IMG/VR virus record: IMGVR_UViG_3300006120_000015
Location: 1-64,000 of that record
Strand: one strand, 5' to 3'
From: a virus
Taxonomy: Duplodnaviria; Heunggongvirae; Uroviricota; Caudoviricetes
DNA length: 64,000 nt
Part shown: in pieces, positions 22,317 through 35,803 of the stretch
Position numbering within the stretch: the first letter of the stretch is position 1
Layout of the letters: each line of letters begins with the position of its first letter
Notes under the pieces: model-generated
Told to the model about the DNA's origin: nothing
Database searches by the model: none
The model's input: only the letters and a program-made list of their open reading frames with translations
Position numbers and translations under genes: made by a program

Positions 22317-22979
22317 ATGTTTAATTATTGCCCGCCACTTGACTTACAAGACCTAAAATCAGAAACTTTCCCAGATGGTAAACGTTATTACACCACACCT
22401 GATGGTGTTCGTTTGCCGTCCGTTACTACGGTCATTGGTGCAAAGAAGAAGAAAGCCATCATGGAATGGCGTGATCGTGTAGGTGCAGAGGCGGCCAATA
22501 AAATATCCAAGAAAGCCACATCACGTGGCACAAATTTACATTCGATTTGTGAAGATTACTTGAACAACCGCATTGATTATCATAGCGGTGTGATGCCTGA
22601 TGCATTAGAAATGTTCAAGTCAATCAGACCATACCTCGACAAAATCAACAACATTCACTACCAAGAACAGGCTCTATGGTCTGTTGACATTGGTATGGCT
22701 GGTCGTGTTGATTGTATTGCAGAATATGACGGTGTTCTATCTGTTATTGACTTTAAAACATCACGCAAAGTAAAAAAGAAAGAAGATATTCAAGATTACT
22801 TTGCACAATGTGTGGCTTATGCATGTATGTACGAAGAACTGGTTGGCAAGGGTATTGACCAAATAGTCATTATCATGGCTGTGGAAGACTCCGAACCACT
22901 GGTTTTCATTGAAAAAACTGAGGATCACCTAAATACTCTATTAGAATTTATCAAATTTTATAGAGAAAATAGTAAATGA
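22317..22979 (+). CDS. PD-(D/E)XK nuclease, Cas4/RecB-exonuclease-like
   Basis: Motifs GRVDCIAEYDG...VIDFKTS (D...E/D-x-K) and QCVAYACMY (QxxxY). Confidence 0.6.
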   Translation: MFNYCPPLDLQDLKSETFPDGKRYYTTPDGVRLPSVTTVIGAKKKKAIMEWRDRVGAEAANKISKKATSRGTNLHSICEDYLNNRIDYHSGVMPDALEMFKSIRPYLDKINNIHYQEQALWSVDIGMAGRVDCIAEYDGVLSVIDFKTSRKVKKKEDIQDYFAQCVAYACMYEELVGKGIDQIVIIMAVEDSEPLVFIEKTEDHLNTLLEFIKFYRENSK

Positions 22980-23833
22980 CCTTACCAGTATCACCAAACC
23001 CGGTTTCGATGAGCCAAGTTGATGCAGAGTTGCTTTATGCGAACAAGACTCAAATCAACATGGGTAATACATCGTTGCGTCAATTGGCTGGAACAATTAA
23101 CGGTAGTGTTTCAGTTAGCAAATTGCAAGGCAAAACATGGGTTACAACACTTAACACAAGTGTTCAAGGTGGTCAAATCGATATTCGAGCACAAGCTCTT
23201 ACAAATAACTGGAACACATATGGACCAGTTGTGTGTAATATTACCGCAAACTCTTGGTCTGTGAGTACTGGTACACCAACAATTTTAATCAGTGGTAATT
23301 TTCCGAACGGTTTACAATTGAATATAGCCACAGGTGTTGCAGTATCTGGCGCTGGTGGCGGTGGTGGTGGCGGAGGTTATTCGACAGGCGGTGGTGGTGC
23401 CGGTTCTGCCGGTGGTCCAGCAATTACTGTCACTGGTTACACAGGCGGACCAATAGTATTTACAAACAACGGTATTATCGCAGGCGGTGGCGGTGGTGGT
23501 GGCGGTGGTTCTGGTGGATATTCACCACCCGCAGGCAAAAGCGGTGCATCATCTTATTATGGTGGCGCAGGCGGTGGCGGACCAGCTTTTGGTGCTGGTG
23601 GCTCATCTGGTTCAGGTAATGGCGCAGCGGCGACCTTCAATAGTGCAGGCGGCGGAAGTTCAGGTAACGGCGGCGGTGCCGGCGGCTCTGGCGGTACTTG
23701 GGGTACTGCTGGTGCTTCAGGTGGTGGCGCATATGGTGGAGGCACCGGTGGTGCCGCTGGTGCTGCAACACTAGGTACAACCGGTTTGGTTACATGGATA
23801 ACAGCAGGAACACGTTACGGTACAGTTAGTTAA
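22976..23833 (+). CDS. glycine-rich protein (long poly-Gly/Ser/Ala tracts)
   Basis: ORF in frame with flanking coupled genes; C-terminal 170 aa mostly Gly. Confidence 0.55.
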   Translation: MTLPVSPNPVSMSQVDAELLYANKTQINMGNTSLRQLAGTINGSVSVSKLQGKTWVTTLNTSVQGGQIDIRAQALTNNWNTYGPVVCNITANSWSVSTGTPTILISGNFPNGLQLNIATGVAVSGAGGGGGGGGYSTGGGGAGSAGGPAITVTGYTGGPIVFTNNGIIAGGGGGGGGGSGGYSPPAGKSGASSYYGGAGGGGPAFGAGGSSGSGNGAAATFNSAGGGSSGNGGGAGGSGGTWGTAGASGGGAYGGGTGGAAGAATLGTTGLVTWITAGTRYGTVS

Positions 23834-23844
23834 TGGAGTGAAAA

Positions 23845-24222
23845 ATGTCAATAACAACAGATTATAAAATAAGAAATTTTAATGAACAGACTGGTCAACT
23901 TATGGTTCAGTTCGAAGCAATAGAACATATGGTGCCTATTGATTTACATTTAGATGAAAATGGAAATTATCCTGAAGGTGAAGCACTAGACACATATATC
24001 CGTGCATTTTGTCCCATTGGTCATCTACAAAGAATTGAAAAGATTAATAACGGTGTTTCTAATGCACACAAGATTTCAGCTTTGGTTGAACCATTAATTC
24101 AAGAAGAGCCTGATAAAATAACAGAAGTTTCTGATGGATTAACTGAAAGTGAAAGACAAGAATTGGGATTAAGTATTAGAATTCAAAAGATTCTATCTGA
24201 ATATATTGGAGCAACTGTATGA
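23845..24222 (+). CDS. hypothetical protein (125 aa)
   Basis: ORF with RBS GGAGTGAAAAATG. Confidence 0.5.
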   Translation: MSITTDYKIRNFNEQTGQLMVQFEAIEHMVPIDLHLDENGNYPEGEALDTYIRAFCPIGHLQRIEKINNGVSNAHKISALVEPLIQEEPDKITEVSDGLTESERQELGLSIRIQKILSEYIGATV

Positions 24223-24746
24223 CAACGAAGTACAAACCATATGCAGCATTTGGTACAGCTATTATCAGATGTAATTCTGAAAAAGGTGATGTGAGAAAAG
24301 TTAATATTGGCAACAATGGTTTAGTCACATCTGGTTATTATTTCTATACACAAGGCCAATCACAACTGAGAATCCAAGAAACAGGTGAAATCATGGAAGA
24401 TAGAACACCTGGCTGGTTGAACTTGGAACATCCAGATTCATTTGCAAAAACTTTAGCCACACAAAATGCATCAGGTACACTTGAATTAACTTCTGTGACT
24501 GATACCGAATGGTTCTGCATTTCCCATGAAGCAAACAAAGATGGTTTACCAAACTTGAAATCTATCATTCTTAATGTTCTCGAATCAACCGAATTTAAAA
24601 ATGACTCAAACATCTTTTTGGCTAGAGGTACACTGCAAGTCAAAGATAAAGAGTTCAAAGGTCCTTGCCAGATTCGTGTTCGTTCTGGTGATGTAACTGC
24701 CACCAACAGAAGCACAGAAACAGCCTACGCATTATTGGTATCATGA
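24219..24746 (+). CDS. hypothetical protein (175 aa)
   Basis: ATGA coupling. Confidence 0.5.
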   Translation: MTTKYKPYAAFGTAIIRCNSEKGDVRKVNIGNNGLVTSGYYFYTQGQSQLRIQETGEIMEDRTPGWLNLEHPDSFAKTLATQNASGTLELTSVTDTEWFCISHEANKDGLPNLKSIILNVLESTEFKNDSNIFLARGTLQVKDKEFKGPCQIRVRSGDVTATNRSTETAYALLVS

Positions 24747-25459
24747 AAACTAAGGCATGGCACCGAAGTATAGGTGCTTGGTTATTTCTACCAACATTGT
24801 ATTTTGTTGGTATGTTTTTTAATAAAGAGTGGCTAACTTTGTCACTCTTTGTTTATTTGGCTGTTGCCATAACGATCACATCGGGTTACCATAGACTATT
24901 CAATCATATGTCGTATCAGTGCAATAAGATATGGCACTATGTTTTTGGTTTCATTGGTTGTGCATCGTTGAATTCTTCACCAGTTGAATGGTCTACGGTT
25001 CATACACAACATCACCGTTATTCGGACACAGAGAACGATCCATACGAAAGCAACTTCAAATACTATTTGAGATTCAAAGATCGAACAGGTATCAAAGCCA
25101 CAAAACGTGAAGTTAGAATGATGCAAGATAGTATGCATAGATTTTTTGTCAAACATTCACTTTCGATTGCACTTGTTACCATGTTAATTTGCAGTTTAAA
25201 TCCGATGTTGTTTCTTTATGGTTATGCTCTACCCGTTACTGCATATTTGGTGACTGCTGGTCTACAAACTATATTCTCACATGGCCCTAATAATGTACGC
25301 AATCTTTGGTTGCTTGAGTTTTTGATACCAATGGCAGGTGAATGGTTACATGGCGTGCATCACGACAATGCATCACTCAATAATTTTTCAACCAAGCCTT
25401 ACTACCTAGATATTGGTGGTTTGTTTATAAAGGTTATACGTAATGTTAAATCGAATTGA
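24743..25459 (+). CDS. membrane fatty-acid desaturase-like protein (acyl-CoA desaturase family)
   Basis: Three His boxes HRLFNH, HTQHHRYSDTENDPY, HGVHHDN in the order and context of delta-9 desaturases; TM helices; short (238 aa). Confidence 0.6.
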   Translation: MKTKAWHRSIGAWLFLPTLYFVGMFFNKEWLTLSLFVYLAVAITITSGYHRLFNHMSYQCNKIWHYVFGFIGCASLNSSPVEWSTVHTQHHRYSDTENDPYESNFKYYLRFKDRTGIKATKREVRMMQDSMHRFFVKHSLSIALVTMLICSLNPMLFLYGYALPVTAYLVTAGLQTIFSHGPNNVRNLWLLEFLIPMAGEWLHGVHHDNASLNNFSTKPYYLDIGGLFIKVIRNVKSN

Positions 25460-25600
25460 AGAACTTGAAGAACACGATATAAAGAATGGATTTGAAGCAG
25501 TTATACATGGTGTTAATGTCATAACAGACTTTGAGATTGAAATTGTTTGGCCGGAAATCAAACACAGTAAGGAAGAAATTCGGCAACTACTGAGTTAATC

Positions 25601-26536
25601 ATGCGAAAATTTTATTATCATGCTGGCAAAATGCCAATGTTGAAAAATCCATATCTCATATATGGTATCGTTGATAGAACGAAAAAAATCATAGACGTTC
25701 CAGAAATGGAAGTACTCACACCTATTGGCAACCTATGTGAAGCCAAGCCAATTGACCAACTATATTATGAAAACGTACAACATATACTCAATTCAACTGA
25801 CAAAAAAATATGTGTAACTTGGTCTGGCGGTATTGATTCTACAGCAACACTTGCAGAATTCCTAAAGTGGACACCAAAAGATAGAATCGTTGTTTTGTTA
25901 ACGGATAACTCAATCAAAGAGTATCCTATATTTTACAAAAACTATATTGAGAAACAGTTAGAGTGTAGGCAACTCAGTTACTATAACCACAACACACTTA
26001 GAGATTCTATCGAGGATGGTGTTATCATTACATCATCAATTATGGATCATTTGTTTGGTGAAGTCTATATTGATATGGATATAAATGCGGTTACAAAGTC
26101 AACTGATGAATTTCTAAGACCATTGAGCCAAGATTCAAAAGATTTCTATCAAAAAATTATTGATGCGTGTCCAAAAAAGATTGATAACGTCAAAGACCTT
26201 TTTTGGTATATGGACTATACACTAGACTATCAATACCATCAGTTGTATTGGTTATTTGATATTGAACAGTTGACTATCAATAAAAACATCTTTCACTTTG
26301 GTGATACACCAGGTTGGAATGACTGGTCAATGTCTACACCATCTGAAGTTAAATGGTCTGGTACAAATCATATTGACTATAAGATGTTACTGAAAAAACA
26401 TTTAGAAAAATTTACACACGATATATACTACACAGAAAACAAAATTAAAGTTTCTTCATGGAGAGCATACAGGAATATCCTGCAAAAATCTAAGAGAGCC
26501 TTTTTTATTGATACAGAATGGGTGAGAGGTTACTAA
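25601..26536 (+). CDS. PP-loop ATP pyrophosphatase family protein (SGGxDS)
   Basis: ICVTWSGGIDSTATLAEF P-loop typical of adenylating N-type ATP pyrophosphatases (AsnB C-domain/QueC/PAPS-reductase-like). Confidence 0.55.
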   Translation: MRKFYYHAGKMPMLKNPYLIYGIVDRTKKIIDVPEMEVLTPIGNLCEAKPIDQLYYENVQHILNSTDKKICVTWSGGIDSTATLAEFLKWTPKDRIVVLLTDNSIKEYPIFYKNYIEKQLECRQLSYYNHNTLRDSIEDGVIITSSIMDHLFGEVYIDMDINAVTKSTDEFLRPLSQDSKDFYQKIIDACPKKIDNVKDLFWYMDYTLDYQYHQLYWLFDIEQLTINKNIFHFGDTPGWNDWSMSTPSEVKWSGTNHIDYKMLLKKHLEKFTHDIYYTENKIKVSSWRAYRNILQKSKRAFFIDTEWVRGY

Positions 26537-27675
26537 TGATTGATAAGTATGGTTATTGGCAAGTTGATGAAAATATATTTACAAGTAAAGTTGAGGCTTT
26601 GTTGTATGCATCAAAAAATAACAAACAAATTAAGTTTGTGTACCATGATTCTGTTTGGAAAAATTTTAACACAAATCTTTTAGGTAAAGTTCCTTTGGAT
26701 TTGCTGTATCGTGATAGAGCAATACAACTGAGAGAAAAATACAAATATCTAAAATTGTATTACTCGGGTGGTTCGGATAGTCACAACATATTGATGACAT
26801 TTATTAACAACAATATAAAATTAGATGAGATTGTTGTTAGATGGTCAAAAGAGCTCATTGAAGGAAATTTCTATTTTCCAAATAAAAAAGATCGAAGTGC
26901 TTTTAACACTTTGAGTGAGTGGGATTTTGCTATCAAACCAACATTAGATTGGTTGAAGAACAAACACCCAGAAATAAAAATAACTATAAACGACTATGTA
27001 TCAAAAATTTCAGTAGAAAATATAGAAAATTCTATGTTTGACGTAAATCATACTAGAAGTGGTTTGATTCAGCATATGCCAATATATGTTCCATATGAAA
27101 AAGATACGACAGGCCATATATTTGGAACAGACAAACCTTTATTATATTTGATTGACAAAAAGATATATATGTATTTCAATGATTTGGCTTTAACAGCTCT
27201 TTATATAAATCACGAAGAAGAACATTTTGTCGAAAATAAAGAATGTTTTTATTGGGCACCAGATTTGCCTTTACTGGCTTATGAAATGGCATATCAGTTT
27301 GCTCAACACTTTGTTAGAAACCCAGAAGAAAGAAAACTGTTGCCTGGTTTTGGTACAGTTGATAAAAAAGAAATGTCAATGTCTGAAATGATACAATTAC
27401 AAAATAATATGGCCAGAGAAATTTGTTATACAACTTGGGACAATCGTTTTCAAGCAGATAAACCAAAAAGTGGTTTAGCTAGAGATAAATTTTTATGGTT
27501 TTTTATCGGAGAAAAATTTGAAAAACCAAAGCAAGCTTTTTTAAGCGGGGTTCGTTCAAAAACTGAAGGCATAAACAAAGAATTTTTAAAAGAAGAAAGA
27601 CTAAGAAATGGTGAAGTTTACCATAATTTACTTTTAATTGCTAGTGATTTTTATTATGTTTGCGAATTGGAATGA
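26536..27675 (+). CDS. PP-loop ATP pyrophosphatase family protein, paralog
   Basis: LKLYYSGGSDSHNILMTF motif; immediately downstream of first PP-loop gene. Confidence 0.5.
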   Translation: MIDKYGYWQVDENIFTSKVEALLYASKNNKQIKFVYHDSVWKNFNTNLLGKVPLDLLYRDRAIQLREKYKYLKLYYSGGSDSHNILMTFINNNIKLDEIVVRWSKELIEGNFYFPNKKDRSAFNTLSEWDFAIKPTLDWLKNKHPEIKITINDYVSKISVENIENSMFDVNHTRSGLIQHMPIYVPYEKDTTGHIFGTDKPLLYLIDKKIYMYFNDLALTALYINHEEEHFVENKECFYWAPDLPLLAYEMAYQFAQHFVRNPEERKLLPGFGTVDKKEMSMSEMIQLQNNMAREICYTTWDNRFQADKPKSGLARDKFLWFFIGEKFEKPKQAFLSGVRSKTEGINKEFLKEERLRNGEVYHNLLLIASDFYYVCELE

Positions 27676-27677
27676 TT

Positions 27678-28541
27678 ATGAAAAAAATATTAATATGTTT
27701 ATTGTTGATGCAAGTTTTAATTTCGAAAGCTGAGACCGTAAATGTGGTATTATCAACTACACCTGGAGGAACACTATATAGTAACTTTCAACAGTTACAA
27801 AATTTCTTAGAAAAGAAAAATGTGACAATTTTACCAAGATTTAAAGTGGGTGCAGAAAGTCTTATCGCAGCTGAAGATGCTAGCAAAAGTAAACCTGACG
27901 GTTCAACAATTTGGCTGACGACAGTTGGCGGTTTAAGTAATGCAAAAAATAATAACTTTGAATTTGAATATGTTACAATGATTGACCAACCTAATTTTGT
28001 TCTGGTTGCAAATCCCAAATTAAATATTCACAACTACAATGACTTTTTATCTAATTTAAAATCTGATAAATCTTATTCTTTTTCATACACTTCAAAAGGC
28101 CATTTATTTTCCATAAAGCAACTACTTAATAATGTTCATCCCAAAACAGAATCTCTAATGGTTCCATATAAAGGGGTACCAAATCTGCTCATAGATTTAA
28201 TTGGTGGTGTAACCGATTTTTCAATATTACCCTACAGTGTCGTAAAAGATTATATTAAAGATGAAAAATTGGTTTTGATATCTTCAACCACCACTTTGTC
28301 TGATTATCCAAATATTGTGGTTTTTGAAAAATTATACAAAAATTGGTTGGACTTAAATGGGTTTGCTGTTGTTTTACCAAAAGGGACACCAAAACAGATT
28401 GTTTTAAAATGGCAAAATTACATAAAAGAGTTTGAGGAAGATCAAGAAACTAAAAAATTCTTTATGGAAAATTATTTTACTGTTACCACTTTTGGTGATA
28501 AATATTTGAAAGACAGAGTTGAAAGAGTGTATGAAAAATGA
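27678..28541 (+). CDS. secreted periplasmic solute-binding-like protein (signal peptide)
   Basis: N-terminal MKKILICLLLMQVLISKA signal; ~290 aa, size like TctC/Bug-type receptors; weak assignment. Confidence 0.4.
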   Translation: MKKILICLLLMQVLISKAETVNVVLSTTPGGTLYSNFQQLQNFLEKKNVTILPRFKVGAESLIAAEDASKSKPDGSTIWLTTVGGLSNAKNNNFEFEYVTMIDQPNFVLVANPKLNIHNYNDFLSNLKSDKSYSFSYTSKGHLFSIKQLLNNVHPKTESLMVPYKGVPNLLIDLIGGVTDFSILPYSVVKDYIKDEKLVLISSTTTLSDYPNIVVFEKLYKNWLDLNGFAVVLPKGTPKQIVLKWQNYIKEFEEDQETKKFFMENYFTVTTFGDKYLKDRVERVYEK

Positions 28542-28993
28542 CTATGAAATTTACACACGAAAAGTTGAATGATGTTCTACCGGAAATGAAGGCCTTGTTG
28601 GACGATCATTATGAAGAACTCACACTAAACAAAGACAAAGTAAAACTAAATCCTATTTGGGACACATATCTTAAACTTGAAAACAACAATGAATTCTATT
28701 TGTTGACTGCTCGTGATGATGGTGTGTTGGTGGGTTATTCGGCTTTCTTTATGAAGCCACACATACACTATGCAGATGTAATTGTTGCATCCAATGATGT
28801 GTTGTACCTGAAAAAAGAATATCGTTTGGGTATGACTGGTGTTAAGTTACTGAAATTCTCCGAACAAAAGATGAAAGAGTTTGGTGCAACCAAAGTAACA
28901 TGGCACGTTAAAGAATCAAACGACTTCAGACCCATTCTACATAGAATGGGTTATATGGACGAAGATATCATTGTAGGTAAAATTTTATGTTAA
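28538..28993 (+). CDS. GNAT-like acetyltransferase (putative)
   Basis: 151 aa; GNAT-like core VGYSAFFMKP...; weak. Confidence 0.35.
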   Translation: MTMKFTHEKLNDVLPEMKALLDDHYEELTLNKDKVKLNPIWDTYLKLENNNEFYLLTARDDGVLVGYSAFFMKPHIHYADVIVASNDVLYLKKEYRLGMTGVKLLKFSEQKMKEFGATKVTWHVKESNDFRPILHRMGYMDEDIIVGKILC

Positions 28994-29646
28994 CAAAACA
29001 ACAGGTTGATTTTCTAAATCAAATGGAGTATACTCCACTTTGGCCTAATTGGTTTTATAGTTACATAGATATTCCTAATCTTGAACCACTACGTGAGGAA
29101 TTACGTGCATTTGTAAATAATCCGGATAAAAAATCTTTTGCTACCAATTCGTCATACATTAATGTTATGGCTGAGTATGTTTTTCCACAGTGTCCTTTAT
29201 TGAAAAAGTATCTGGTTAGTGTTGGGCTGGAGAAAAAATTCCATAGACTTTTGATTTCTAGAAAAATTGTATTGAGTGAAGTTGGTAATGTTCATGTTGA
29301 CACATACAGTCCTGAGTTTACACGACACTCAATAAATATTGGAATACAAGACTACGAAGACTCTTTTACTCGATGGTTTAAAACAGACCAAAGAAAACTA
29401 AACGATGTTGCAAACCGTGGATGGGATCCAATATCAAATTTTGCTTGGATACCATTAGAAGAAGCAACAGAAATAAAAAGACTTCAATGGTCTAATAGAC
29501 CAACATTAGTCAATACAACAATACTTCATCAAGGATATTCTGAAAAAGAGAGTAGAGTTATTGTCGGACTAAGATTTAAACCCGAATTGACCGAAAGTGA
29601 CATTAAAAGACTTGGTGTGAACCGTCCTCACGTACAAGAAGATTGA
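28987..29646 (+). CDS. cupin/2OG-Fe(II)-oxygenase-like protein, paralog 1
   Basis: HxD (NVHVDTY) and distal His (ILHQG). Confidence 0.45.
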   Translation: MLTKQQVDFLNQMEYTPLWPNWFYSYIDIPNLEPLREELRAFVNNPDKKSFATNSSYINVMAEYVFPQCPLLKKYLVSVGLEKKFHRLLISRKIVLSEVGNVHVDTYSPEFTRHSINIGIQDYEDSFTRWFKTDQRKLNDVANRGWDPISNFAWIPLEEATEIKRLQWSNRPTLVNTTILHQGYSEKESRVIVGLRFKPELTESDIKRLGVNRPHVQED

Positions 29647-29647
29647 T

Positions 29648-30277
29648 ATGGAAGCCAAAGACTTATTTGCAAAATGTTGTTTTAGTGAAAAACAACTCGA
29701 AACAATGAAACAAATTTACTATAAACATTTTGCACCTTTGATGCCTGATTTTTATCAAGGTAAAGCCATCATTGCAAACTGGCGCAAAGATGATGTTGAT
29801 TGGGAAATGAATAAAAATATGGACAAAAACCATTTTAATAAAGGTTTTGTCGCTGAAGATTGTTTAGAGGATCCACTTTGGAATGAATTTGCCGATTTAT
29901 TACCATACATGTCCAGATCAGCTTCAATAACAAAATTGCCGGCAGGTAAACATATGTTACCTCATGTCGATAGGAAGTGGCGTTCTCAAGCACTTTATTT
30001 TCCTATTGAAGGTTGTTCTGAGCTATGTATATCTGAATACTATAACTTACCAAAAATAAAAACAGAAAACAATATGGTGTTTGATATTTTTCCTGATGCA
30101 CAGCATACATATTCTGTTTATGGTAATGCGTATCTAACAAATGTACACGAATGGCATGGAGTAAGAAACACAAGTAGTGTAGAAAGAATTGCTGTTGGTT
30201 GGGATTTTAGAACACCTGAAATGTCTTATCAAGATTGTAAAGATGTACTTAAAAAGTTGGGGTACTTAGATGAGTAA
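29648..30277 (+). CDS. cupin/2OG-Fe(II)-oxygenase-like protein, paralog 2
   Basis: LPHVDRKW ... HEWHGV. Confidence 0.5.
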   Translation: MEAKDLFAKCCFSEKQLETMKQIYYKHFAPLMPDFYQGKAIIANWRKDDVDWEMNKNMDKNHFNKGFVAEDCLEDPLWNEFADLLPYMSRSASITKLPAGKHMLPHVDRKWRSQALYFPIEGCSELCISEYYNLPKIKTENNMVFDIFPDAQHTYSVYGNAYLTNVHEWHGVRNTSSVERIAVGWDFRTPEMSYQDCKDVLKKLGYLDE

Positions 30278-30854
30278 TTATTACCACGAACTAAAAATTG
30301 ATGTAACAAATGCATTAAGAAAAGACTGGGTATTTCCTAAACCCAATGGTCAAAAATATAAAAACGGAGTGTGGGAATTCCCTTTAGTTGATGTTATGGA
30401 TCCTGATTGGATCAAATATGTCGAAAGTCTTGGAATAAAACTGGCTGTTGACATAATGTTGTTCTACAAACCGGTATTTTTTAACATGTTGATCGATGTT
30501 GCTCATATTGATGTTATAAACGGTGATGAAAATGAATTTAGGCATTCTAGTTTAAACATCATAGTTGGTGGTGAAGATTCTGATATGCGTTGGTATGAAA
30601 TGCCAGAAAATTTAGGAGGCATGTCTTACACCCCAGCAAACACACCTTATCTGCAATGGCCAGTAAAAAAGATGGTTGAAGTTGAAAGAAAATATATAAA
30701 ACAAAATTGTGTAACGTTGGTGAGAACGGACATTCCACATTCAATAACAGTTCATACAAAAGACCGTTGGTGTTTTGCAATGACACCGTATAAAAATCCT
30801 GAATGGAACGAAGTAGTCAAGTTGATACAAGAAAAGAATTTACTGGTGGACTAA
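30270..30854 (+). CDS. cupin/2OG-Fe(II)-oxygenase-like protein, paralog 3
   Basis: AHIDVINGD ... DIPHSITVH. Confidence 0.45.
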   Translation: MSNYYHELKIDVTNALRKDWVFPKPNGQKYKNGVWEFPLVDVMDPDWIKYVESLGIKLAVDIMLFYKPVFFNMLIDVAHIDVINGDENEFRHSSLNIIVGGEDSDMRWYEMPENLGGMSYTPANTPYLQWPVKKMVEVERKYIKQNCVTLVRTDIPHSITVHTKDRWCFAMTPYKNPEWNEVVKLIQEKNLLVD

Positions 30855-31411
30855 TGTTTAAGTATTTTGCAAAGCTAAATGGTAATTTTGAATTCAATAG
30901 TGATATCGAAAAAATTCGTGACGTAACAACTTTTGGTGCAACAGATACCCACCAAAAATTTAAAGGTATAAATTATTCACGAGTTAAGTTACTTGAAATG
31001 GAAGATGTTTATAAAGTTATACCAAAAGGAAAAAAGAAATTTTTCTTTTTGAATTTGATGAGAATCAATTCAAAAGTACCAACGCATACCGATAGTACAA
31101 TTAAAACTTGTATTAACTTCTATATAAAAACTGAAAATTGTGTCACATATTTTCACGAACCTAAAGTAGAAAATCCAAGAAAGTTTCAAATATCAAATCA
31201 GACCGATGGATACATTTTTCATCCACTAGATTTACAGATAGTAAAAGAATTTAATGCAAAACCAACAGAAGCTTGGGTCTTAAACGTCAAAGAACCGCAT
31301 AGTGTTGTGCCTTTATCTGGTATAGAAGAACGAGTTGCACTCAGCCTACAAACAAAAGATTTTACGTTTGATGAAGTGTGTGAAATGCTTAAGGAAACCG
31401 GATACTTATAA
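30854..31411 (+). CDS. cupin/2OG-Fe(II)-oxygenase-like protein, paralog 4
   Basis: PTHTDS ... EPHSVV; ATG 30854 overlaps upstream stop. Confidence 0.45.
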   Translation: MFKYFAKLNGNFEFNSDIEKIRDVTTFGATDTHQKFKGINYSRVKLLEMEDVYKVIPKGKKKFFFLNLMRINSKVPTHTDSTIKTCINFYIKTENCVTYFHEPKVENPRKFQISNQTDGYIFHPLDLQIVKEFNAKPTEAWVLNVKEPHSVVPLSGIEERVALSLQTKDFTFDEVCEMLKETGYL

Positions 31412-31426
31412 ATACCATAATGTGGC

Positions 31427-31455
31427 TTGACTTTTTGTTAAACCTGATATATAAT
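31427..31455 (+). promoter_or_regulatory. sigma70-type promoter TTGACT-17-TATAAT driving tmRNA
   Basis: -35 31427-31432, -10 31450-31455. Confidence 0.6.
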
Positions 31456-31461
31456 ATGAGA

Positions 31462-31770
31462 TATGGTTGTATGAAGCAACTTGAAAAATGTTCTGGAAGC
31501 GGGTTCGACTCCCGCCAGGTCCACCATAAAACACATTAGCTCTACGGAGCCCCAGTTATCGTTCTAGACGTGGGATAACGGAATAGTGTGTTTTATAATG
31601 GGCCTGCCATGGTTTCGACAGGGCAAAGAGTATAGAAGTGGACAACTAGACACAGATAGTCTATAAAAGTAAACTAAGTAAATGTAAATGATTCAAAATT
31701 CGCATTGGCTGCCTAATTAACGGCACCTAGGGTTTCGGTTGGTTTCCTCGTAACAGAATAACCAACCACT
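31462..31770 (+). ncRNA. ssrA: permuted two-piece tmRNA (ssrA): acceptor piece then coding piece
   Basis: T-arm GCGGG-TTCGACT-CCCGC (31499-31515) + 3' acceptor strand CAGGTCC-A-CCA ending 31526; 5' strand GGGCCUG at 31600-31606 downstream pairs with G3:U70 wobble (AlaRS identity); GGTTTCGACAGGG tmRNA 5'-end signature; tag frame ...DSKFALAA-TAA ending 31716; 3' hairpin 31735-31767. Confidence 0.75.
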
Positions 31771-31782
31771 TTAAGGATAAAA

Positions 31783-32340
31783 ATGCAGTACTGGAAAATT
31801 GTTGAAGCTGGCGACTATAAAGTTTATGGCCAAAAAATCTTAGAGCTGCACAGAAAGAAACCGGAGTTCTTTCGACACATAAATCTTTTCTGGAATCCAG
31901 TAAAGACAGACAGACTAAAAGAAGTTTTGGATAACATACCAGAATTTCAAGGTGTGATAGAAAAATTTGGGCCAATAAAACAGATGGCGGTCTTGACATT
32001 AGGTACTGATAGTAGTACACTACATATAGACCACACAGATGATTTAAATAACGGTGTTCAGGCAAGGTTAAATATACCATTGTTGAACTGTGAAGGTTCT
32101 TCAACCGCATTTTTTGAAATGGACGAAAAAACATTTCAGATGCATGAATCAACACCATCCGGCGCAAAATATTGGCCTACGAGTCTTAGGAACAGTTTGG
32201 AACCAATCACAGAGATTGAACTGATACAACCAACAATTCTAAGAACATCAAGTCCACATACAATTTTTTGTAGGACTTGCCAATACCCTAGAATATCGCT
32301 TACAATATCGTTTGTAAATGATGTTGTAAACTTTTTATGA
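31783..32340 (+). CDS. cupin/2OG-Fe(II)-oxygenase-like protein, paralog 5
   Basis: LHIDHTDD ... SSPHTIF. Confidence 0.45.
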   Translation: MQYWKIVEAGDYKVYGQKILELHRKKPEFFRHINLFWNPVKTDRLKEVLDNIPEFQGVIEKFGPIKQMAVLTLGTDSSTLHIDHTDDLNNGVQARLNIPLLNCEGSSTAFFEMDEKTFQMHESTPSGAKYWPTSLRNSLEPITEIELIQPTILRTSSPHTIFCRTCQYPRISLTISFVNDVVNFL

Positions 32341-32407
32341 ATTAGGTTTTGTTTGATTTCCTACCCAAGAATAATCAATCACTTTATTTAAATAAAAGGA
32401 GTTTTTT

Positions 32408-32836
32408 ATGAAGAAAATTTTAGTAGCTGCTGCAGCAGTATTGTCTTTGTCAGCATTCGCTGCTGATGTATCTGTTGACCAAGTTCGTGACTATTCAGTT
32501 GCGAAAGACGGTGTTCGTGTTGGTACACAAGTGTTTGGCATTAACGTTGCCGCAACACATATCGGCAACGAATACAACCGTGTGTCAGTTGGTAAAGATT
32601 TTGAATTGACCAGAGTTGGTCCTGTTGCTTTGTCAGCAGGCGGTGCAGCTGTCTATCAAAAGACAGAAGTTGCAGGTGTTGATAATGGTTATGGTTTGAC
32701 TGTTGGTGCGAAAGCAACTTATGCAATTACAAAATCTGTTGACGCCGTTATCGGTACAGAGCGTTTCTATGGCCAAAATCGCATCAGCGGTTTCAATGGC
32801 AACACTGGTATGATCGGTGTTAACGTTAAGTTCTGA
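32408..32836 (+). CDS. secreted outer-membrane-like small beta-rich protein (signal peptide, C-terminal Phe)
   Basis: MKKILVAAAAVLSLSAFA signal; alternating amphipathic strands; ends NVKF like OMP C-terminal signal. Confidence 0.5.
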   Translation: MKKILVAAAAVLSLSAFAADVSVDQVRDYSVAKDGVRVGTQVFGINVAATHIGNEYNRVSVGKDFELTRVGPVALSAGGAAVYQKTEVAGVDNGYGLTVGAKATYAITKSVDAVIGTERFYGQNRISGFNGNTGMIGVNVKF

Positions 32837-32865
32837 TAGTTTTCTAAGTTTCTAAAAACTTATCA

Positions 32866-32889
32866 AAAACGGACTTCGGTCCGTTTTAT
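32866..32889 (+). terminator. rho-independent terminator aaaacggac-ttcg-gtccgtttt
   Basis: Perfect hairpin with T-run. Confidence 0.75.
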
Positions 32890-32907
32890 CATTTTTAAGG
32901 AGAAGTA

Positions 32908-33381
32908 ATGAAGAAGTTCATTCTAATTACATTATTCGCCCTGATGCCGGTTATGTCGCATAACGAACAATTATCTGAGGTTCAGAAGGTATCAGCAGAG
33001 ATAGCACGCCAAATTCAATGCATGGCACAAAATTTATACTACGAAGCCGCAAGAGAACCATATGAAGGTAAGCTGGCCGTAGCACAAGTGACAATGAATC
33101 GGACAAGAGACCCCGAATTTCCAAAAACTGTGTGTGATGTGGTCTATCAGAAGACCAATACCACTTATCAATTCAGTTGGGTCGGAGAAAAACACACTCA
33201 AGCAATCAATAAATATGAATGGGAAGAATCCATGATGGTTGCTAAGAGAGCCTTGACGGAACAATACGTACACGATAAACTCTATCATGTACGAGCAATG
33301 TACTATCACGCCGACTATGTGCATCCAGGTTGGAGAAAACAGCAAGTTGCACAAATTGGAAGGCACATATTTTACAAATGA
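32908..33381 (+). CDS. SleB-type cell wall hydrolase (Hydrolase_2 family) with signal peptide
   Basis: LYYEAAREP...GKLAVAQVTMNRTRDPEFPKTVCDVVYQ...QFSW... motif set characteristic of SleB/CwlJ-like domain. Confidence 0.65.
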   Translation: MKKFILITLFALMPVMSHNEQLSEVQKVSAEIARQIQCMAQNLYYEAAREPYEGKLAVAQVTMNRTRDPEFPKTVCDVVYQKTNTTYQFSWVGEKHTQAINKYEWEESMMVAKRALTEQYVHDKLYHVRAMYYHADYVHPGWRKQQVAQIGRHIFYK

Positions 33382-33528: not shown

Positions 33529-33750
33529 ATGCCAACAAAACAGGAAGTGAAAGAGTTTAGTGACCTTATAGAGAAACTAAACGGAGAGCTTAGGACCGGT
33601 TATATGGATGCAATTACGCACCATTGTGAAGAAACTGGTCTTGAGATTGAAGTTGCAGCCACTCTAATCACACCGTCACTCAAATCTAAGATTAGAGAAG
33701 AAGCACAAGAAATCAATTTGCTGAAGAAAACATCCAAATTGCCGCTATGA
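33529..33750 (+). CDS. small hypothetical protein
   Basis: ORF. Confidence 0.35.
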   Translation: MPTKQEVKEFSDLIEKLNGELRTGYMDAITHHCEETGLEIEVAATLITPSLKSKIREEAQEINLLKKTSKLPL

Positions 33751-34355
33751 CAGACACTACAGGTTTTGATGCATACTCCTTGTACAATGCACTGAAACTA
33801 CATTTTACCGGCTCTTACGACTTCATCAAGTACAACGGTAAAACCAGTGTATCTCGTACAAATTTCTCTACACGCCGAGACAAATACCACTTCTACAAGT
33901 TGTCTCGCAAATATGACATTGACGAATTAAAAAATTTCTATATTGCCAACTTTATTGTTGATGATGGTTCGTGGGCGGGTGATTTACTCACACCACAGGC
34001 TGAAGAACGATACAAAAACTGGCAAAAAAGAAACCAGAGCTTGACATACCAGTTCGAACAGGATATAATCTATCTATTCAACAAGTATGATCTGAATGAC
34101 ATTCTTTCTGTGGTAGATGACCATTACCCAAGGTTACTACACGAATTGATGCAATCAGAGATTATGATTGAAACTGTTATTGTAATGGATGACTTGATGA
34201 ATTTCTTACCAATGTGGCAACGTAAAATCAAAGATGATATTATTTGGCCACGATGGGAAATGAAAATCGCCAAGTATAGACCGTTTGTACATTACGACAA
34301 ACAAAAACTGAAAAGTATTCTAAAGGAAATGGTAAAAGAACATGCAGAAGCCTAA
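33747..34355 (+). CDS. gp59: gp59-like helicase loader
   Basis: Clear colinear match to T4 gp59: YSLYNALKLHFTGSYDFIKYNG...TRRDKYHFYKLSRKYDIDELKNFYIANFIVDDGSWAGD vs YKLYLMIKQHMNGKYDVIKYNW...KRRDKYFFQKLSEKYKLKELALIFISNLVANQDAWIGD. Confidence 0.8.
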   Translation: MTDTTGFDAYSLYNALKLHFTGSYDFIKYNGKTSVSRTNFSTRRDKYHFYKLSRKYDIDELKNFYIANFIVDDGSWAGDLLTPQAEERYKNWQKRNQSLTYQFEQDIIYLFNKYDLNDILSVVDDHYPRLLHELMQSEIMIETVIVMDDLMNFLPMWQRKIKDDIIWPRWEMKIAKYRPFVHYDKQKLKSILKEMVKEHAEA

Positions 34356-34833
34356 AATCAAATGTATCTACTTGGATATGGATGGCGTTATTGCTGATTT
34401 TGAAAAACGTTACATGGAACTGTATAACATTCATCCACGTGAAGCGGAGAAGAAATCTCAGTTCAATCATTTCTTTGATAATTTTATTAATACTAATCAG
34501 TTTGCAACACTCGACAAGATGCGTGGTGCTGATGAAGGTCTTGATTACTTACGCAAGGCTTCAGCACCAACACAGATTCTCTCCTCAACTGCCAATGAGG
34601 AAAGATACGATGCCATTTCCAAACAGAAAATGATTTGGTTACAGACCCATGGCATCACCTTTAATCCCATTTTTGTTCCTGGTAAAAAACACAAATGGAA
34701 GTATGCGACTCCCGATTCAATCATTATCGATGATACCAAAAGTGTTATTGACGATTGGCGTGAGGCAGGTGGTATTGGCATTTGGCACAAAGACTGGCCA
34801 ACCACTTTGGCAATCTTGCATATGTATGTGTAA
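34342..34833 (+). CDS. HAD-family 5'(3')-deoxyribonucleotidase-like
   Basis: Motif I YLDMDGVIADFE; conserved IIIDDT later. Confidence 0.6.
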   Translation: MQKPKIKCIYLDMDGVIADFEKRYMELYNIHPREAEKKSQFNHFFDNFINTNQFATLDKMRGADEGLDYLRKASAPTQILSSTANEERYDAISKQKMIWLQTHGITFNPIFVPGKKHKWKYATPDSIIIDDTKSVIDDWREAGGIGIWHKDWPTTLAILHMYV

Positions 34834-34915
34834 GAAACGCCTAAATACTATTATATAATGAAAACTGTGACATACAAAACATATACCGTAACACTCCGTT
34901 TATAAAGGAAAAATC

Positions 34916-35803
34916 ATGAGTTCATTTGCAAATCTCAAAAAACAAGCCGGTCATTTAGACAAAATGAAAAAGGCTGTTGAAAGTATGAGCCAAAACGCTG
35001 GCTCTGACAAGCCTGATAACTTTTGGAAACCAGAAGTTGACAAAGCAGGCAACGGCATGGCAACCATCCGTTTTCTACCATCCTCTCCAGGTGACGGTGA
35101 AGATTCTCTACCATGGGTAAAGATTTTCTCTCACGGCTTTCAAGGTCCTGGTGGTTGGTTAATCGATAACTGTCTCACCACTAAGAACGAACAATGTCCT
35201 GTTTGTGAACACAACAGCCGCTTGTGGAATTCTGGTGACAAAGAAGATAAAGCACTCGTAAGCAAACAAAAACGTAAACTCAACTACGTTTCTAACGTCT
35301 ACATCGTTAGCGATCCAAAACATCCAGAAAATGAAGGCAAAGTATTCTTGTTCCGTTATGGCAAGAAAATCTTTGACAAATTGACTGAAGCGATGAATCC
35401 CGCTTTTGAAGATGAAACACCAATCAATCCATTTGATTTGTGGAAAGGTGCTAACTTCAAGTTGAAGATTCGTAAAGTTGATGGCTATCAAAACTATGAT
35501 AAGTCCGAATTCGAATCACCATCTGCTTTGTTGGATGATGACAGTGAATTGGAAAAGATTTGGAAGTCTGAATACACCTTGAAAGACTTGTTGCAAGACA
35601 AAGAGTTCAAGACATACGACCAATTGAAAGATCGCTTGGAAAAAGTTCTTGGTGAATCTACAGCACCTGCTCGTGCAACTGTTGCAGAAGAACCAAAAGC
35701 AGAAGTTAAGGTTGCAAAACCAAAAGCAGAAGCTAAAGAACCAGCTCCATGGGATGATGATGATTCAGCTTATTTCGATAAGTTGGCTCAGATGGATGAC
35801 TAA
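34916..35803 (+). CDS. gp32: gp32 single-stranded DNA-binding protein
   Basis: Colinear match to T4 gp32: FWKP.VDKAGNGMATIRFLPS, HGF...C...CPVCEH zinc site, GKVFLFRYGKKIFDKL vs GKVFKYRFGKKIWDKI, acidic C-terminus. Confidence 0.9.
   Translation: MSSFANLKKQAGHLDKMKKAVESMSQNAGSDKPDNFWKPEVDKAGNGMATIRFLPSSPGDGEDSLPWVKIFSHGFQGPGGWLIDNCLTTKNEQCPVCEHNSRLWNSGDKEDKALVSKQKRKLNYVSNVYIVSDPKHPENEGKVFLFRYGKKIFDKLTEAMNPAFEDETPINPFDLWKGANFKLKIRKVDGYQNYDKSEFESPSALLDDDSELEKIWKSEYTLKDLLQDKEFKTYDQLKDRLEKVLGESTAPARATVAEEPKAEVKVAKPKAEAKEPAPWDDDDSAYFDKLAQMDD

Follow-up and report, generated by a model that had tools for sequence, protein, structure and literature searches.

What is the function of the AT-rich gene cluster that surrounds a transfer-messenger RNA (tmRNA) gene in an uncultured tailed virus? 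The locus comes from the IMG/VR record IMGVR_UViG_3300006120_000015, of which positions 1 to 64,000 were analysed; this whole stretch of 64,000 nucleotides is called the window. The region studied is 25601-32340, and its GC content was compared with that of the rest of the window. The protein-coding genes of the region are named A, B, C, D and E1 to E5, and they encode two proteins with PP-loop motifs (A and B), an exported solute-binding protein (C), a GNAT acyltransferase (D) and five oxygenase-like paralogs. Because the gp32 of this genome is 54-60% identical to that of marine cyanomyophages, the genome belongs to a T4-like phage; the phages of the clade are of the Melnitz/pelagimyophage type with cyanophage-like replication genes. 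The region is probably, with a confidence that goes somewhat beyond an even chance, a conserved and co-transcribed accessory operon of uncultured freshwater T4-like phages that tailors an amino acid, a peptide or a protein. The first-pass annotation, which was made from the sequence alone, had suggested a compact modification or biosynthetic module, and this general idea holds.

When A, B and E1-E5 were searched as single sequences, Pfam, PHROGs, NCBIfam and the PDB returned nothing usable, and therefore profiles and structure models were needed. Single-protein scans of IMG/VR for close relatives found none. An alignment-based scan revealed 93 relatives of A in species-representative genomes and at least 495 in IMG/VR, and 3,188 genes from 172 loci were clustered to describe the neighbourhoods of the relatives. 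The T4-like contigs with the closest A homologs share one gene order: two small genes, a desaturase gene, a small open reading frame (ORF), A, the GNAT gene, E2, E3 (one or two copies) and E4. From the desaturase gene to E4, this order is retained where the identity of A is only 39-51%, and D orthologs follow A in 25 loci. The module is located between the gp38-like adhesin gene and gp59/gp32 in a clade of uncultured freshwater T4-like phages, and a gp38-like gene also precedes it in two loci with optional genes (L010 and L174). The operon sits in a variable zone that extends from the gp38-like adhesin gene to the block of the tmRNA, late-transcription coactivator, gp59 and gp32 genes.

The optional insertions in the relatives include B together with its TctC-like neighbour, a gene of 205-217 amino acids, an acyl-carrier protein (ACP) with a second GNAT, and a radical SAM/SPASM enzyme; the copy number of the E genes also varies. 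In the loci L013/L014 (6826-8004; 10367-11671), the ACP (PF00550, 5e-16) and the second GNAT are located between A and the conserved GNAT, and the radical SAM/SPASM enzyme follows the oxygenase array. This ACP and GNAT pair hints at carrier-bound acyl or aminoacyl chemistry in these two relatives. No match to A, a 568-residue marine A homolog, B, C or E2 was found by tblastn among GenBank phages (50,697 records), and megablast of the region against the GenBank phages also gave no match. The earlier statement that the region is not standard T4-like content is thus correct for the GenBank records; yet the module is syntenic across the uncultured freshwater T4-like clade.

The composition and the packing of the region were also analysed. 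Its GC content is 32.9%, compared with 38.4% in the rest of the window, and it ranks 9th lowest among 573 equally long sliding windows, of which the one beginning at 24801 has the lowest value (32.7%). This windowed calculation confirms the AT-rich segment that had been noticed by eye. The lowest GC contents in the block are those of B and C (29.6-29.7%). AT-richness begins upstream of the block, where the gene of 125 amino acids (23845-24222) has a GC fraction of 0.317 and a GC fraction at third codon positions (GC3) of 0.143. Since low GC3 is also seen in this upstream gene, the AT-rich zone corresponds to the whole accessory region and not to a sharply bounded insert. All genes in 22.9-35.8 kb are on the + strand, and no strong promoter or terminator was seen within 25.6-31.4 kb. 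With the most plausible start codons, the junctions in the block range from -8 to +2 nucleotides: the overlaps are 1 nucleotide for A/B, 4 for B/C, 4 for C/D, 7 for D/E1, 8 for E2/E3 and 1 for E3/E4, and a gap of 1 nucleotide separates E1 and E2. The earlier description of the composition and the tight packing is confirmed.

Gene A (25601..26536, +) encodes a protein of 311 residues that is assigned to the asparagine-synthetase-type PP-loop ATP pyrophosphatases. Only 17 close homologs were found in a set of 5.8 billion proteins. The motif WSGGIDS(T) is invariant in these 17 and in 71 distant homologs. A profile of the A homologs matched only PP-loop enzymes in the PDB, with LarE first (2.8e-4), followed by NAD synthetase, GMP synthetase, TilS and asparagine synthetase. 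The AlphaFold model of A is confident (pLDDT 84, pTM 0.86) and places the PP-loop motif, which begins at residue 75, after a strand at 69-73. The modelled fold is a Rossmann-like alpha/beta nucleotide-binding fold, as in GMP, NAD and asparagine synthetases; beyond this nucleotide-binding core, A has the synthetase-domain fold of asparagine synthetase B (AsnB), beta-lactam synthetase and TsnB9. The best fold matches in BFVD are uncultured-phage proteins of 365-397 amino acids (TM about 0.7), and three of the top six are named 'Asparagine synthase'. An N-terminal nucleophile (Ntn) glutaminase domain is not present at the N-terminus of A, where residues 1-45 are a short and poorly modelled segment. 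On the model, A is a stand-alone AsnB-type synthetase domain without the glutaminase domain. The Pfam family PF00733 did not match the window protein; cellular relatives scored 13.7-17 bits against a cut-off of 21, and two of the 38 long A-family members reached an E-value of 5e-4. The family also has a consensus TGExGDQLFG, in which D149 and G153 are at least 90% conserved. A is closest to the asparagine-synthetase-type amide ligases and not to QueC. The invariant motif and the PP-loop fold of the model bear out the earlier claim that A is a PP-loop adenylating enzyme.

Gene B (26536..27675, +) encodes a second, divergent protein with a PP-loop motif (379-385 amino acids). Its homologs number 439. 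Within the motif YSGGSDS, the residues S83, G84, G85, D87 and S88 are invariant in 37 homologs that share 37-53% identity. Comparison of B with A by hhalign gave a probability of 84% over just 49 columns around the loop, and in a search of the ORFs of the window with a broad A profile, B was the only match besides A itself (3e-5). The B family had no match in the PDB, and none of the 37 members matched Pfam even at E <=1. B is probably a PP-loop enzyme, judging from this motif; of the claim for a second PP-loop protein, the SGGxDS motif stands and the fold is only probable. B is located directly before a TctC-like gene everywhere it was seen, in the window and in L008, L010/L011, L173 and L174. 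In L174 (9001-11309), two tandem copies of B (385 and 384 amino acids) precede the TctC-like gene. The same locus has a gene of 205 amino acids between A and B, and a gene of 217 amino acids is similarly placed in L010.

The most numerous genes of the region are the oxygenase-like paralogs: E1 (28987..29646, +; H103-V-D105 ... H181 ... R190), E2 (29648..30277, +; H106-V-D108 ... H170 ... R180), E3 (30270..30854, +; H79-I-D81 ... H157 ... R166), E4 (30803..31411, +; H95-T-D97 ... H166 ... R177; its start may be the ATG at 30854) and E5 (31783..32340, +; H84-T-D86 ... H159 ... R170). Four are in tandem and the fifth directly follows the tmRNA gene, and a scan with hidden Markov models (HMMs) showed no further copy in the window. 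Pairwise BLAST among them is marginal. The HMMs of the orthologous groups link the paralogs, from the E3 profile to E1 (7e-8), from the E2 profile to E4 (8e-10) and from the E1/E5 profile to E3 (3.9e-9). The hhalign probabilities are 93% for E1 and E3, 88% for E1 and E2, 96% for E2 and E4, 86.5% for E1 and E5, and 49% for E3 and E4. E5 matches an E1 ortholog (L001_12036) by phmmer at 1.7e-9 and clusters with E1, and their catalytic columns align. The paralogs form two subfamilies, {E1, E3, E5} and {E2, E4}, which are joined only at the profile-profile level.

Each of the five paralogs has the H-x-D motif, a distal His 60-80 residues further on and, 9-11 residues beyond this His, an Arg. No sequence of the four orthologous groups (E5 falls inside the E1 group) departs from this H-x-D...H...R pattern; the catalytic columns are conserved in 10/10 sequences for E1, 22/22 for E3 and 11/11 for E4. 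The invariant Arg residues (R190, R180, R166, R177 and R170 in E1, E2, E3, E4 and E5) are the putative anchors of 2-oxoglutarate (2OG). The structure model of E2 is very confident (pLDDT 92.6), and its best fold matches are amino-acid and protein hydroxylases. The curated models of Pfam, NCBIfam and PHROG did not match any of the five. E1-E5 are divergent paralogs of the double-stranded beta-helix (DSBH) fold with a complete Fe(II) triad and a 2OG-anchoring Arg. The oxygenase tandem array proposed by the first-pass annotation is confirmed, as is the DSBH or cupin fold that had been set as a check on it. A phmmer cluster had linked E1, E3 and E5 to the Asp/Asn hydroxylases of PF05118. This link was dropped, as the bridge is a protein of 392 amino acids (L010, 8626-9804) in which PF05118 covers residues 78-197 only; such a pattern suggests a two-domain protein, and hhalign of the E paralogs against the PF05118-type phage proteins was negative.

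Genes C and D belong to known families. C (27672..28541, +) is an exported solute-binding protein of the tripartite tricarboxylate transporter type (TctC/Bug), which matches PF03401 with 57.4 bits (cut-off 27; 2.1e-15). Among solved proteins, phmmer matched it to the terephthalate-binding TphC (9e-11), BugE (3e-9) and Bug27 (4e-4). Its N-terminus, MKKILICLLLMQVLISKA followed by ETV, is a Sec-type signal peptide, as read directly from the translation. No TctA or TctB gene is adjacent to C in the window or to its counterparts in L008, L010, L173 and L174, and C would therefore need membrane components of the host. D (28538..28993, +) is a GNAT N-acyltransferase, with matches to PF00583 (36.5 bits against 20.7; 6.4e-9) and to the acetyltransferase family PHROG 1249 (1.5e-15). 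Both the solute-binding receptor and the GNAT-like protein had been recognized before, and both assignments are correct.

The enzyme classes suggest a chemical scheme for the operon. Enzymes of the AsnB synthetase class adenylate a carboxylate and then form an amide. A would use ATP to convert the carboxylate of its substrate into an acyl-adenylate, which ammonia or an amine would capture to give an amide; B would probably carry out the same chemistry on a second substrate. D would acylate an amino group. Several sites, or several related substrates, would be hydroxylated or oxidised in another way by the five oxygenases. C, which might be coupled to B, would capture a carboxylate ligand in the host periplasm and pass it to the host TctAB. 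The class assignments are direct observations, and from them we infer the reactions, their coupling and the substrate. This chemistry suits the tailoring of an amino acid, a peptide or a protein better than that of DNA.

The wider A family gives further information on possible partners and targets. An exhaustive profile search revealed 1,688 cluster representatives at E<=1e-3, of which 1,339 are at <=1e-10. The family is spread over Bacteroidota, Proteobacteria (partly prophages), bacteria of the candidate phyla radiation (CPR), Chloroflexi and hundreds of viral contigs; the hosts of A relatives include Lewinella, Tenacibaculum, Aquimarina, Xanthomonas albilineans, Comamonas, Undibacterium, CPR bacteria and Chloroflexia, among others. 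Outside the T4-like phages, the sole recurrent partner of A is a metal-binding Cupin_2 protein of about 215 amino acids, which is adjacent and on the same strand in 66 loci and accounts for 24 of 92 neighbours in cellular A loci. The cellular members occur in cassettes of two or three genes with the cupin and not in DNA-modification loci. This recurrence indicates that the teaming of an adenylating enzyme with a cupin-fold metalloenzyme is a conserved theme. The Cupin_2 partner has no detectable relation to E1-E5 or to the 175-amino-acid gene upstream of A. In a Chloroflexia operon (L004), the three proteins encoded downstream of a distant A homolog have no Pfam match and no profile link to the E families.

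Many of the viral members are close to tail genes. In 27 of 75 IMG/VR loci, compared with 0 of 69 cellular loci, a gp38-like gene precedes A at a distance of 1-3 genes. A large group of marine viruses has the order gp38-like gene (one or two copies), cupin, A (568 amino acids) and tail genes. In Mu-like prophages of Xanthomonas, Comamonas and Undibacterium (X. albilineans L071, 5107-10293; L032, L040 and L142), the order is baseplate J, a short tail fibre, a protein of 199 amino acids, the A homolog (338 amino acids) and a protein of 108-153 amino acids, and the accessory proteins have no Pfam match. One A-family protein (P0214, 534 amino acids) is a fusion that carries a phage tail assembly chaperone domain in its N-terminal part (PF16778, 1.1e-12, residues 103-156), and another (P0289) has C-terminal leucine-rich repeats. 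Since A-family genes adjoin tail-fibre genes in several phage lineages, the receptor-binding apparatus of the phage or the surface of the host is a candidate target. The A family might be a new class of tail-fibre-associated ATP-dependent amide ligases, and A, the GNAT and the oxygenases would together tailor the glycine-rich gp38-like adhesin or another receptor-binding component, or would remodel the host receptor. Amide or isopeptide bonds, acetyl groups and hydroxyl groups would be introduced, and with either target host recognition would be enzymatically tuned; B and the TctC-like protein would form a separate unit of ligand capture and ligation. We regard this specific version as decidedly unlikely.

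The tmRNA gene (31413..31773, +) is permuted, i.e. it encodes a two-piece molecule. Rfam assigned it to beta_tmRNA (RF01850, 117.6 bits against a gathering threshold of 84) and to tmRNA_permuted (RF04321, 111.8 against 47), and ARAGORN called a permuted tmRNA with the tag peptide VNDSKFALAA. It has its own near-consensus sigma-70 promoter (TTGACT-17-TATAAT, 31427-31455). In 13 of 28 related loci, a permuted tmRNA with a tag of the ANDxxxALAA type occupies the corresponding place, separated from the upstream array by a few genes. The first tag codon is GTA (Val) in the window; it is an Ala codon in all 13 related phage tmRNAs. Two-piece tmRNAs have been described for Melnitz and pelagimyophage-type phages (PMC9004378). 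The gene of the window is like these in being permuted, in its T4-like aquatic myophage genome, in its position just upstream of the late-transcription coactivator region and in its early-type promoter. It differs in that it scores best with the betaproteobacterial Rfam model, its tag starts with Val instead of Ala, and no glutamine riboswitch was found at the gathering threshold in 20-40 kb. In two related loci (L009 and L110, 19772-19846), ARAGORN called a tRNA with a CTA anticodon (amber-suppressor type, labelled tRNA-Pyl).

How does the proposed operon compare with other explanations? One is that these are unrelated auxiliary genes in a hyperplastic zone of a T4-like genome, each acting alone on host metabolism: a lipid desaturase, a nutrient-binding protein, an acetyltransferase, protein or metabolite hydroxylases and an Asn-synthetase-like enzyme, all independently derived from hosts. 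The B and TctC, ACP and GNAT, and radical SAM cassettes come and go among the relatives, and stand-alone auxiliary genes (PstS-like proteins, porins, PhoH and the Asp/Asn beta-hydroxylases of PF05118) occupy the same zone of neighbouring contigs. Upstream genes that are not part of the module have a low GC3 as well. Moreover, desaturase and Asp/Asn hydroxylase genes had been noted before in freshwater pelagimyophages, where a stearoyl-CoA desaturase and an Asp/Asn beta-hydroxylase are listed as separate auxiliary genes (PMC7029224). The core order of A, GNAT, E2, E3 and E4, however, is still kept where A is only 39% identical, genes overlap at their start and stop codons throughout the block, and B is always beside the TctC-like gene; the association of A with a cupin-fold enzyme in very different genomes also argues for enzyme teams. 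We consider a collection of independent genes possible but rather unlikely. Several points nevertheless weigh against a tailoring operon. No member with a studied substrate, product or activity was found here for the A, B and E families. Synteny is generally conserved in T4-like phages, and a shared order is thus a weaker sign of shared function than in bacteria; the modular content (B and TctC, ACP and GNAT, radical SAM/SPASM, and the E copies) fits a loose association equally well. The window copy of A reads T-S-S-I-M-D-H-L-F-G at residues 141-150 (26023-26050), where the family has the TGExGDQLFG motif: its Thr-Ser-Ser stands where the family has Gly in 90% of members and then mostly Glu or His. 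The Glu position, which would correspond to AsnB Glu348, is occupied by H, Q, L, G or E in the T4-like clade. The Thr-Ser-Ser indicates that the activity may be altered, and catalysis may be altered or lost in the window copy. The PP-loop fold of B is only probable. The window has no copy of the Cupin_2 partner, and the census of 38 long A-family members showed one tail-chaperone fusion and one leucine-rich-repeat fusion only, the chaperone fusion thus being a single case.

The first-pass annotation had also raised DNA hypermodification, in which a base would first be hydroxylated by the oxygenases, in the manner of TET/JBP or AlkB-like enzymes, and then decorated by the PP-loop enzymes and the GNAT, shielding the phage DNA from restriction. 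PP-loop enzymes such as QueC do act in the 7-deazaguanine DNA modification of other phages. A 2OGFeDO protein is also mentioned as a possible nucleic-acid modifier in a pelagimyophage study (PMC7029224). No specific support for the suggestion was obtained here: A is nearest to AsnB-type enzymes and not to QueC, E2 is nearest to amino-acid and protein hydroxylases, C is exported to the periplasm, and the cellular A family occurs in cupin cassettes. No Pfam or PHROG family of DNA modification was found in the block genes or the relatives examined, and among the genes of 22976-33381 there was no Pfam, PHROG or NCBIfam match to TGT/DpdA, dNMP hydroxymethylase, base kinase or glycosyltransferase families. 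Hypermodification of DNA or nucleotides is therefore very improbable. Another proposal was that of a mobile AT-rich island, i.e. foreign DNA integrated by site-specific recombination at the tmRNA gene as an insertion hotspot. The region is indeed in the lowest-GC stretch of the window, the tmRNA gene lies inside it, and the most AT-rich genes (B and the TctC-like gene) are present in only a subset of relatives. However, 22.5-33.5 kb contains neither a directly repeated tmRNA end nor att-like repeats; the family scans of the block genes matched no integrase, and none is annotated in any related locus. The tmRNA gene is intact, with its own promoter and a syntenic position in related contigs, and the module is also present in relatives without a tmRNA on the fetched stretch (L010, L013 and L097). 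The core block occurs in all related T4-like contigs examined, and the sub-cassettes alone vary. Furthermore, two-piece tmRNA genes are a known feature of such phages, and the genome is that of a lytic T4-like phage. The tmRNA is a phage gene and the block is a stable part of the phage lineage, and an island inserted at the tmRNA gene is hardly credible.

The genes on both sides of the block were also annotated. Five genes upstream of A is the gp38-like glycine-rich tail-fibre adhesin gene (22976..23833, +; PF05268 GP38, 2.1e-12). Its degenerate GGT/GGC-rich direct repeats (23340-23770; seven copies of a 41-nucleotide unit with 61-71% identity) encode poly-glycine runs. Two small conserved genes (125 and 175 amino acids; 23845..24746, +) always precede the desaturase gene in related contigs; in 18-24 loci, their clusters (c8 and c5) occupy the positions -4 and -3 relative to A, and neither has a significant Pfam match. 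The next gene (24743..25459, +) encodes a short membrane di-iron protein resembling Delta9 acyl-CoA/lipid desaturases, with three His boxes (HRLFNH, HTQHH and HGVHH). It matches SCD1 (4ymk) by phmmer at 6.3e-8 with both His boxes aligned, matches the NCBIfam DesA family at 1e-10, and is at offset -2 from A in 24 loci.

A small conserved ORF of 51 amino acids (25443..25598, +) is located directly upstream of A. In 19 of 19 loci, the members of its cluster (c9) take the position -1 relative to A, and its products are 51-69 amino acids long in the relatives. It was considered as the precursor of a ribosomally synthesized and post-translationally modified peptide, such as a lasso peptide. This was rejected, as the ORF is conserved over its whole length and at both ends, with an indel-rich middle and no leader/core pattern. 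No peptidase is encoded within the block, and a papain-like gene is nearby only in L008 among the relatives compared. A short C-terminal helix motif, L-x-(K/R)-L-G-(I/V/Y), is common to E1 (DIKRLGV, 29600-29646), E2 (VLKKLGYLDE, 30225-30277) and E4 (MLKETGYL, 31360-31411). The small ORF of the relatives (e.g. L009, 9799-9999) also bears this helix as LAKLGIxF, and it may be a common docking motif. Downstream of E5 are a secreted YfaZ-like protein of the outer-membrane type (32408-32836, +; PF07437, 8e-6), a cell-wall hydrolase gene (32908-33381, +), and then the late-transcription coactivator, gp59, NT5C-like and gp32 genes (33529-35803, +). The strongest terminator-like hairpin of the region (32866-32887) follows the YfaZ-like gene.

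Every enzyme of the region belongs to a known superfamily; for the families A and B and for both E subfamilies there is neither a curated model nor a studied member, and their combination is undescribed. The literature searches yielded no account of any of the A, B and E families, or of these genes occurring together. If the genes act together, they would be among the largest enzyme teams for one tailoring chemistry in a T4-like phage, and this would help to explain why aquatic myophages have so many 2OG oxygenases, a long-standing puzzle. The TctC-type binding protein, being carried by a phage, would add a further kind to the nutrient-capture auxiliary genes, alongside PstS.

Comparison with known systems shows both similarities and differences. 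A has the SGGxDS PP-loop at the same place as the AsnB synthetase domain, beta-lactam synthetase, the carbapenam synthetase CarA and the hydroxyamidotransferase TsnB9, and the same carboxylate adenylation and amide formation would be expected. The A-family motif TGExGDQLFG presumably resembles SGEGSDEVFGG of AsnB. However, A has about 310 amino acids and no glutaminase domain, whereas the matched chains have about 500-580; it is also below the PF00733 threshold, and the window copy has Ser-Ser for the Gly-Glu of the motif. In the AsnO and Ngg pair, which makes N-acetylglutaminylglutamine amide, an AsnB-like enzyme also goes together with a GNAT, as in the gene content of this block. The AspH/LpxO-type Fe(II)/2OG dioxygenases are common auxiliary genes of cyanomyophages and pelagimyophages. 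E1-E5 share with these PF05118 enzymes and with proline hydroxylases the DSBH fold, the H-x-D...H motif, the Arg about 10 residues after the distal His and the length of about 200 amino acids, and the PF05118 genes of related phages occupy the same genomic zone; whereas E1-E5 match no curated model and form two subfamilies of their own. Pairs of an adenylating enzyme and a cupin are also known from pathways of peptide-derived metabolites, namely the MetRS-paralog/cupin systems (Iyer et al. 2010, PMC2922099). The adenylating fold of those systems is a class-I tRNA synthetase and not a PP-loop enzyme, and the lysine N-oxygenase or peptide ligase found there does not accompany A here; nevertheless, in both cases a metal-binding beta-helix enzyme is the companion of a HUP/PP-loop-class enzyme that activates carboxylates with ATP.

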